A stretch of 64,000 nucleotides of DNA from a virus (Duplodnaviria; Caudoviricetes). The notes beneath the pieces are model-generated. The model was not told where the DNA came from and made no database searches. It saw only the letters and a program-made list of their open reading frames with translations. The stretch lies in the IMG/VR virus record IMGVR_UViG_3300028048_002144, one strand, 5' to 3'. Below, in pieces: positions 42,098 through 50,544 of the stretch (positions are counted from its first letter, which is position 1; every line of letters begins with the position of its first letter). The position numbers were made by a program, and so were the translations under genes.

Positions 42098-42454
42098 CTA
42101 TTTGTAAATCTTTCTGTTATAGATTATTAAGTCGATCCTATCTTCTGAATAAGATTTAACCTTTACATCAATAACCTTCTTTACTTTAAATTTCATTCCG
42201 GTGTAATCTTTGATATTGAAATTCTTCATATCTTCATCAATGATCTTAGAAAATGCTTCTACTACAGCTTCAGCATCAAAGAAATTTAATCGCATCGAGC
42301 ACATATGCTCATTTTCTGTTCGGTTCTCTTCATAATACTTAGGGCATGAATAAAAATTCGACATGTTCTCTGCGCCAGCATGCACGGTCATTTCTACTGG
42401 ATCATGATTATTTGCACAGAAAAAATGTATCTTTTTCCATAGATTTTTCTGCAT
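42098..42454 (-). CDS. Cys/His-containing hypothetical protein
   Basis: C-x3-H...FYSCPKY...C pattern; motif upstream. Confidence 0.6.
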   Translation of the reverse strand: MQKNLWKKIHFFCANNHDPVEMTVHAGAENMSNFYSCPKYYEENRTENEHMCSMRLNFFDAEAVVEAFSKIIDEDMKNFNIKDYTGMKFKVKKVIDVKVKSYSEDRIDLIIYNRKIYK

Positions 42455-42594
42455 ATCTTTGCCTTTCTAATCATCTAATTAGTGGTAACTTTTATTATTA
42501 ATATGACAGATATAAGAACGTTTCTTGATTTTTGCATAAAAAAAGAGAAGTTCCAAAGAACCTCTCTTAAAATAAAATATAAACTTTACACAAA

Positions 42595-42748
42595 AACAAA
42601 AGCTCCTGGGTTATCCCAGGAGCTTATATCGGCAATCGTTCACCATTATTTTTTATACAGGGGAAGTGCCCGGTTCAGCCGATATGAATCCCTCAGCAAG
42701 TGAGCCTGTATTGATTTTTTATACGTAATTTACGTACAACAACTATGA
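42595..42748 (-). ncRNA. Putative structured small RNA of unknown family
   Basis: Has its own sigmaA-like promoter, a GC-rich four-way junction with an 8-bp pseudoknot, and a terminator hairpin at 42599-42625. Confidence 0.6.
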
Positions 42749-42753
42749 AATAT

Positions 42754-42782
42754 AATATACACTATGTTACAAAAAATGTCTA
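42754..42782 (-). promoter_or_regulatory. SigmaA-type promoter for the small RNA
   Basis: TAGACA-17 bp-TATATT on the minus strand. Confidence 0.55.
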
Positions 42783-43049
42783 GTCTAATTTGTAATTAGA
42801 ATATTCTACGTCCATACTTGTACCATTTATATTTCTGCAATAAGGACAGATATCTTCACTTCTATCTCTGAATCCTGGTACTTGATCTTCCGTGAATTGC
42901 TTATATTTCTTATTACATTTCGGACAAGTAACAACATTACTAGACTCTCTGAAATACTCTAAATCCCCATCGCCATTGTAATATACTCCCATAGCATTTT
43001 CTCCTTTACTAACATAATTAGTATTTAGGTTTCCCTTTTTGTATCTCAC
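42780..43049 (-). CDS. Small Zn-ribbon protein
   Basis: CPKC...CPYC; likely start MGVYY behind AAAGGAG. Confidence 0.6.
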   Translation of the reverse strand: MRYKKGNLNTNYVSKGENAMGVYYNGDGDLEYFRESSNVVTCPKCNKKYKQFTEDQVPGFRDRSEDICPYCRNINGTSMDVEYSNYKLD

Positions 43050-50219: not shown

Positions 50220-50544
50220 AGATTTGGCTCCTTTCTGTAAATTACTGATATGTTTATTGCTATAAGCCGGTACATATCAACCGTAATGCAGCCTTCGCCA
50301 ATGTTATTATGAGGTTTTTGTAAGCAACACCGTTCCTACCCATTAGAACTGTTTAATCACTTATCTTAGAGCTGCAGACTAGGCTGAACATCCACAGGTA
50401 ACTATACATAACAATGAAACTACTAATGTTTCATTGTATATTCTCACATAACGTAGTCAGTTAAGACTTAGGCTAGTCAACAAAGGCTTTTACAAGCCTC
50501 CACTTCAACAATTATAAAATAATCGCAAGTGGTGAGTTATTGAC
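50220..50544 (-). ncRNA. omegaRNA (HEARO-like) of IscB element 2
   Basis: GTCAA.../...GTTGACTAGCCTAAG helix, GACTACGTT and AACATTGGCGAAGG segments upstream of iscB. Confidence 0.8.

Follow-up and report, generated by a model that had tools for sequence, protein, structure and literature searches.

An orphan pseudoknotted RNA gene on a plasmid-like element belongs to an RNA family found upstream of PBECR4 genes and may be an antitoxin RNA

What is encoded between the zinc-ribbon gene and the operon leading to a ParM-like actin in the 64,000-nt stretch of viral-record DNA analyzed here (the window), and what could its function be? An earlier note, made by reading the letters, had described positions 42595-42782 as a stand-alone small RNA of about 150 nt with a four-way junction and a long-range pseudoknot, and had offered a list of possible functions. 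We found the feature to be a real RNA gene, ~130-150 nt long, located on the minus strand and equipped with its own promoter and terminator. The fold energy of the 151-nt stretch was -48.6 kcal/mol, compared with -31.9 +/- 3.5 in shuffled sequences (z = -4.8), and the coordinates and sequences that had been given for the promoter, the closing stem, the three hairpins, the two pseudoknot strands and the terminator all proved exact. The statement that the region contains no credible ORF was also borne out, as the one AUG frame inside the RNA spans 11 codons and is absent from the homologues described below, which have AUC or AUU at this position. Leader-peptide attenuation was rejected as an explanation on the same grounds, the AUG of this frame not being conserved.

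The promoter is of the sigma-A type (TAGACA-17-TATATT, 42754..42782, minus strand; score 10/12), with TAGACA at 42782-42777 and TATATT at 42759-42754. Its -35 box and the TAG that ends the upstream zinc-ribbon gene overlap, and chromosomal copies of the RNA, for instance at L207 and L085, have a promoter homologous to its TAGACATTTTT...GTGTATA(A/T)T sequence. Folding places a 5′ hairpin (42719..42739, minus strand), made of TACGTAA and TTACGTA around a single A, in the interval separating this promoter from the conserved RNA. This perfect 15-bp palindrome, TACGTAAATTACGTA (42722-42736), lies just 3′ of the -10 box, occurs once in the window and could be either an operator or a 5′ stabilizing hairpin. 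It is specific to the window, since none of the homologues has such a hairpin; in them the -10 box is separated from the closing stem by only ~20 nt. On the opposite strand, a sigma-70-like promoter with a score of 10/12 (42729-42756, plus strand) is aimed into the 3′ end of the zinc-ribbon gene and is probably a chance occurrence in AT-rich DNA.

The conserved RNA occupies 42580..42712 (minus strand, as are all coordinates in this paragraph) and consists of the junction domain, a linker, the second pseudoknot strand and the terminator. It was delimited with a covariance model, R1, which matched the window over its full length at 42712-42580 with 139.9 bits and an E-value of 7.5e-31, a score to be read in light of the fact that the window sequence is among the 48 used for building R1. 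The window RNA also has 94% identity to copies that were recovered independently. Pair counts defined a four-way junction domain (42655..42711) that is closed by P1 (42711-42705 with 42661-42655) and contains P2 (42704-42701 with 42695-42692), P3 (42691-42686 with 42676-42672, including one bulged A) and P4 (42671-42670 with 42663-42662), the last of which forms G-C or G-U pairs only. The P3 loop, AUAUCGGCU (42677..42685), provides the 5′ strand of the pseudoknot. As had been noted, AUAUCGGC at 42685-42678 is the perfect complement of GCCGAUAU at 42626..42633, which provides the 3′ strand. The junction is followed by an A-rich linker with a GUGAACGA box (AAAAAAUAAUnGUGAACGAUUG; together 42634..42654), composed of near-invariant columns. 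The 3′ pseudoknot strand then directly abuts an intrinsic terminator (42590..42625) with an 11-bp stem, an AUAA loop and a U tract, which forms the 3′ end of the RNA; the strong terminator proposed previously was located at 42625-42600. All pairs of P1, P3 and the loop-to-3′ pseudoknot are standard pairs in the window RNA.

If this structure is real, its helices should be maintained by compensatory changes, and covariation in homologues had been named in the earlier note as a way of checking it. We found such covariation in 50 homologues, using pair counts from a MAFFT alignment of 48 sequences and from a second alignment of 51 that adds loci found independently via the protein described below; it affects the closing stem, the middle hairpin, the pseudoknot and the terminator. 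In the closing stem (AUACAG/CUGUAU, 42711-42706 with 42660-42655) the outer pair occurs as A-U, G-C and U-A. Covariation was present in 4/5 pairs of the middle hairpin, in 5/7 pairs of the pseudoknot, where both sides change (e.g., in L190, L128, L226/L227 and the L083 lineage), and in 10/11 pairs of the terminator. None of 500 shuffles reached the observed covariation measures, and when the partners were slid by 1-3 columns the pairing dropped from 97.6% to 37-53%. The support for the pseudoknot does not come from model fitting, because the pseudoknot was left out of the covariance model used for the alignment. It comprises seven pairs in the family and 8 bp in the window only. The three proposed hairpins fared differently. 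While the middle one is confirmed, the stem of hairpin 1 (CUCA/UGAG) shows no variation, not even among loci that were recovered without the probe (only the loop changes), and is therefore neither supported nor refuted by covariation; hairpin 3 is weak, its 2-3 G-C pairs being in competition with the closing stem. A small hairpin that can be drawn in the linker and GUGAACGA box (UCG-UGAA-CGA) showed no covariation in the alignment. In one contig, L176, the pseudoknot is broken because its loop and its 3′ strand match two different lineages; recombination or chimeric assembly is the probable explanation.

To collect the homologues we used an 18-mer probe that spans hairpin 1 and the junction, and all were verified by alignment. 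There are ~110 true homologues, comprising 3 in viral contigs, ~90 in metagenome contigs (mostly human gut) and ~20 in Lachnospiraceae genomes, and they derive from human-gut and rumen metagenomes, genomes of Blautia, Butyrivibrio, Dorea, Agathobacter and Maccoyibacter, and phage contigs. They represent 49 distinct variants, to which the window core is 80-94% identical. Each of five RNA-carrying genomes examined has exactly one copy. A 21-mer probe returned nothing in viral contigs, a 17-mer probe returned only chance matches in genome contigs, the region had no blastn match among PLSDB plasmids or INPHARED phages, and R1 did not match the sequences carrying ParM relatives (pRUMAL01, pCY360 and MT835474). 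The view that the RNA could be assigned to no known family was upheld by an Rfam scan, in which neither the gathering thresholds nor a cutoff of E up to 10 produced more than chance-level rows for the RNA. A tRNA-like cloverleaf was rejected because the arms are too short and ARAGORN found no tRNA in the RNA region. We searched the literature and retrieved no paper on this RNA family or on the RNA-protein pairs described below. Taken together, these data define a well-supported RNA family of gut and rumen Lachnospiraceae, uncatalogued in Rfam and characterized by a covarying pseudoknot.

An indication of function came from the genes that follow the RNA in other genomes. At most loci an ORF starts 8-13 nt past the terminator region of the RNA, behind a good ribosome-binding site, and its product matches PF18813 with E-values of 1e-9 to 1e-22. 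This Pfam family is PBECR4, for phage-Barnase-EndoU-ColicinE5/D-RelE-like nuclease 4. The usual layout is promoter, RNA, strong terminator, ribosome-binding site and a PBECR4 gene (252 aa). The association was equally evident in the reverse direction. Among 23 PBECR4 loci fetched by protein similarity and scanned with R1, the RNA lies directly upstream of the gene in 21 of the 22 located on genome contigs as well as in the one on a viral contig (L232), and the sole locus without it is cut by the contig end. The linkage holds down to 56% protein identity, including in Clostridium lundense, and four of the five genomes with a single RNA copy also have PBECR4 genes. The genes flanking the RNA differ in every lineage, leaving PBECR4 as the only conserved neighbor. 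Thus the candidate functions listed in the earlier note could be narrowed. The comparative data favor its antitoxin or decoy RNA, because the RNA family is the upstream partner of PBECR4 nuclease genes, and nothing in them speaks for a ribozyme, a riboswitch or a base-pairing sRNA. The suggested connection to the HD-GYP genes, the par operon or c-di-GMP found no support, and a c-di-GMP/HD-GYP link was rejected for lack of a conserved association. A gene with its own promoter and terminator and with exposed conserved loops might still be a base-pairing sRNA, a ribozyme, or an element tied to the adjacent HD-GYP or par genes; we regard this as very improbable, given the variable flanking genes, the existence of a relative (L014, discussed below) that keeps those genes without the RNA, and the absence of any Rfam ribozyme or riboswitch match at E up to 10.

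PBECR4 is predicted to be a BECR-type, RNase-like toxin, an assignment that rests on Pfam PF18813. The protein family is small: among 1.84 billion representatives it accounts for 52 clusters at 50% identity, fragments making up many of these, and models from PADLOC and NCBIfam gave no match to the partner proteins. Invariant residues include His43 (in an NFPHL motif), Ser86, Lys91 and Glu165 (WIDES). An AlphaFold model of the protein has a pLDDT of 94.5; with this model Foldseek gave no match, and a profile search of the PDB produced nothing useful. Structural comparison using VIA-align returned weak rows, namely a colicin D tRNase (Z 3.3, 83 aligned, rmsd 3.5), the toxin chain of the Salmonella TA complex 7vd7 (Z 2.9) and BrnT (Z 2.8).

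The R1 family is not the only structured RNA in this position. In Butyrivibrio, Maccoyibacter and Blautia genomes, a drum RNA (RF02958; 65-92 bits), a terminator and a ribosome-binding site directly precede PBECR4 paralogues (L233:1328-1438, L234:1327-1437 and L235:1312-1423), which suggests that drum is the same kind of PBECR4 partner RNA. Weinberg et al. (2017, PMC5737381) reported a compelling association of drum with a nearby protein, considered a riboswitch improbable and left the function unknown. The two RNAs share strong conservation of a structured fold, a 3′ terminator and the position upstream of PBECR4, whereas they have no detectable similarity in sequence or structure: the drum model did not match window positions 42300-43000 at E up to 10, and R1 did not match the drum loci. 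A fourth PBECR4 paralogue (L238:1170-1500) lies behind a GC-rich segment of ~200 nt, in which two similar units (…TCGGAAGG…) are accompanied by a strong terminator; neither R1 nor drum matches this repeat-like RNA.

In the window, the RNA stands without this partner. A tblastn search of the 64 kb with three PBECR4 proteins found no PBECR4, and the window copy is therefore an orphan member of the family, consisting of promoter, RNA and terminator with no toxin gene. Upstream of it are genes for a topoisomerase, an HD-domain protein and the 70-aa zinc-ribbon protein; downstream are genes for a 118-aa protein, an S26 signal peptidase and the ParM-like actin. The 118-aa protein is unrelated to PBECR4 and has no relatives in genome or viral contigs, its one homologue being in another context. 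A second terminator (42543..42568, minus strand), the ordinary cassette terminator of the element, separates the RNA from these downstream genes, and after it the private promoter motif of the element, GTCATATT (42500..42507, minus strand), heads the operon of the 118-aa protein, S26 peptidase and ParM. The RNA is consequently not the leader of that operon.

Orphan copies also occur elsewhere. Three toxin-less lineages retain an intact RNA: the window, the phage contigs L080/L081, in which the RNA comes after the tape-measure gene, and Blautia wexlerae (L083/L185), which has pseudoknot compensations of its own in a genome without any PBECR4. No hidden PBECR4 relatives were detected among the proteins downstream of the orphan loci (hhalign probability below 1%). 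More generally, 97 of 113 RNA loci had enough downstream sequence for the ORF to be scored; it was full in 37, shortened in 38 and missing in 22, indicating that the RNA outlives the toxin. In the most abundant gut variant (L201 type, ~20 gut metagenome contigs), the RNA is intact and the PBECR4 frame is broken after ~30 codons (L240:1636-1800). In another locus (L118), sequence has been deleted so that the A-rich linker of the RNA continues directly into the interior of the toxin ORF.

By analogy with known RNA-toxin pairs, we lean, with slightly more than even confidence, toward the reading that the RNA is the antitoxin of PBECR4 and that in the window it occurs as an orphan, serving as a decoy or persisting as a relic. 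The RNA most likely acts in two ways, both modeled on ToxI/ToxN and RCd22/AbiF. In cis, the terminator of the RNA would keep transcription of the toxin gene low; in trans, the abundant terminated RNA would bind the PBECR4 protein and neutralize it. The closest match is RCd22/AbiF of Clostridioides difficile, for which it was demonstrated experimentally that a non-repetitive RNA represses the toxin gene in cis and neutralizes the protein in trans (Saunier et al., bioRxiv 10.1101/2025.04.15.648962). Both systems have a sigma-A promoter, a non-repetitive structured RNA, a Rho-independent terminator and an RNase-type toxin gene, and both occur on mobile elements. They differ in that the abiF RNA (RF03085) gives no match here, in that the toxin is Abi_2/HEPN there and PBECR4 here, and in that the present system is known from its sequence. 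The ToxIN, CptIN and TenpIN systems, in which antitoxins of tandem 34-38-nt repeats are processed by ToxN-family toxins (Blower et al., 2012, PMC3401426), likewise have the order promoter, pseudoknotted RNA, terminator, endoribonuclease gene and are often found on mobile elements. The type III arrangement of a terminator between RNA and toxin under one promoter is found in our toxin-bearing homologues, whereas the window has the promoter and terminator only. The R1 RNA is also one unit of ~110 nt, and its partner is PBECR4 rather than a ToxN/AbiQ-type protein; Tandem Repeats Finder detected no tandem repeats in window positions 42450-42850. Lack of the tandem repeats seen in classical type III antitoxins argues against the antitoxin reading, as do the deletion of the RNA in the close relative L014 and the fact that the Pfam assignment is the one basis for regarding PBECR4 as an RNase or toxin. 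The three toxin-less lineages with intact RNA, on the other hand, argue for action in trans.

The same loci could be interpreted in another way. The RNA may be purely a cis leader of PBECR4, such as a riboswitch-like or protein-sensing attenuator of terminator read-through, in which case the toxin-less copies would be non-functional leftovers. Intact loci always have the RNA in the 5′ UTR with the terminator between RNA and gene, the complex and highly conserved fold recalls riboswitch aptamers, and the copy in the window can be lost, as L014 demonstrates. We nonetheless think this explanation unlikely. The minimum-free-energy folds of six members revealed no shared anti-terminator, and the pseudoknot strand abuts the terminator without overlapping it. 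Orphan lineages retain promoter, fold and terminator, with the Blautia lineage having acquired its own compensatory pseudoknot changes in a genome that has no PBECR4, and in the window another terminator, together with a separate promoter, lies downstream of the RNA. Furthermore, a riboswitch role was argued against for the analogous drum motif (Weinberg et al., 2017).

The fate of the RNA in a close relative of the window bears on whether the orphan copy has a present role. L014, a 508-bp metagenome contig, encodes a zinc-ribbon protein 96% identical to that of the window. At L014:380-508 a promoter-like sequence is kept and then runs straight into the second terminator, which L014 shares with the window; the RNA is gone. 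The segment that is present in the window and missing from L014 (42575..42747, minus strand; 173 bases) is bounded by the 8-bp direct repeat TTATATTT. Insertion of a MITE or other mobile element was rejected as the cause of the indel, as terminal inverted repeats are absent. Since the RNA family's own promoter is homologous to the one that L014 has retained, the difference is best read as a 173-bp deletion between the TTATATTT repeats in L014, not an insertion in the window, and the RNA is dispensable there. This raises the possibility that the window copy, irrespective of the function of the family, is the decaying remnant of a module whose toxin has been lost, with no present role on the plasmid. 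Such decay would agree with the absence of PBECR4 from the window, with how common toxin decay is across loci, with the loss already seen in L014 and with one non-consensus base in the GUGAACGA-box hairpin of the window, where G replaces the C or U found elsewhere. The state of the window RNA itself makes this improbable in our judgment: its promoter, all covarying helices and its terminator are intact, its pseudoknot is perfect and one pair longer than the consensus, its P3 stem carries a compensated change, and its nearest relatives, at 94% identity, are another orphan copy, that of the phage contigs L080/L081.

Returning to the antitoxin reading, the orphan could be accounted for in either of two ways. 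Carried on a 205-kb plasmid-like element, the window RNA may serve as a free antidote against the PBECR4 toxins of hosts or competing elements. Alternatively, it may be the remnant of a module that lost its toxin and is en route to a deletion of the L014 type. Among the classical type III systems, a phage is reported to have escaped ToxIN by means of a pseudo-ToxI RNA. More speculatively, PBECR4 and its upstream RNAs (the R1 family, drum and at least one repeat-type RNA) might constitute a large undescribed class of RNA-antitoxin/toxin defense modules, with the 205-kb plasmid and some phages carrying the RNA alone as an anti-defense decoy against host PBECR4; we put this forward tentatively and consider it more doubtful than the antitoxin role itself. 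If it were correct, the drum RNA, an orphan motif unexplained since 2017, would gain a testable function, and the giant plasmid and the phages that carry toxin-less copies would offer natural examples of RNA-based counter-defense in abundant human-gut and rumen bacteria. Neutralization of PBECR4 by the RNA would be a new RNA-antitoxin/toxin pairing, which would combine a BECR-type nuclease, in place of ToxN or AbiF, with an antitoxin made of one pseudoknotted RNA and not of a repeat array. At a minimum, the data provide a well-supported structured RNA family that is new to Rfam. Elsewhere in the window, a HEARO/IscB omega-RNA match of 114 bits was observed at 50283-50544 (minus strand), upstream of a 416-aa ORF.
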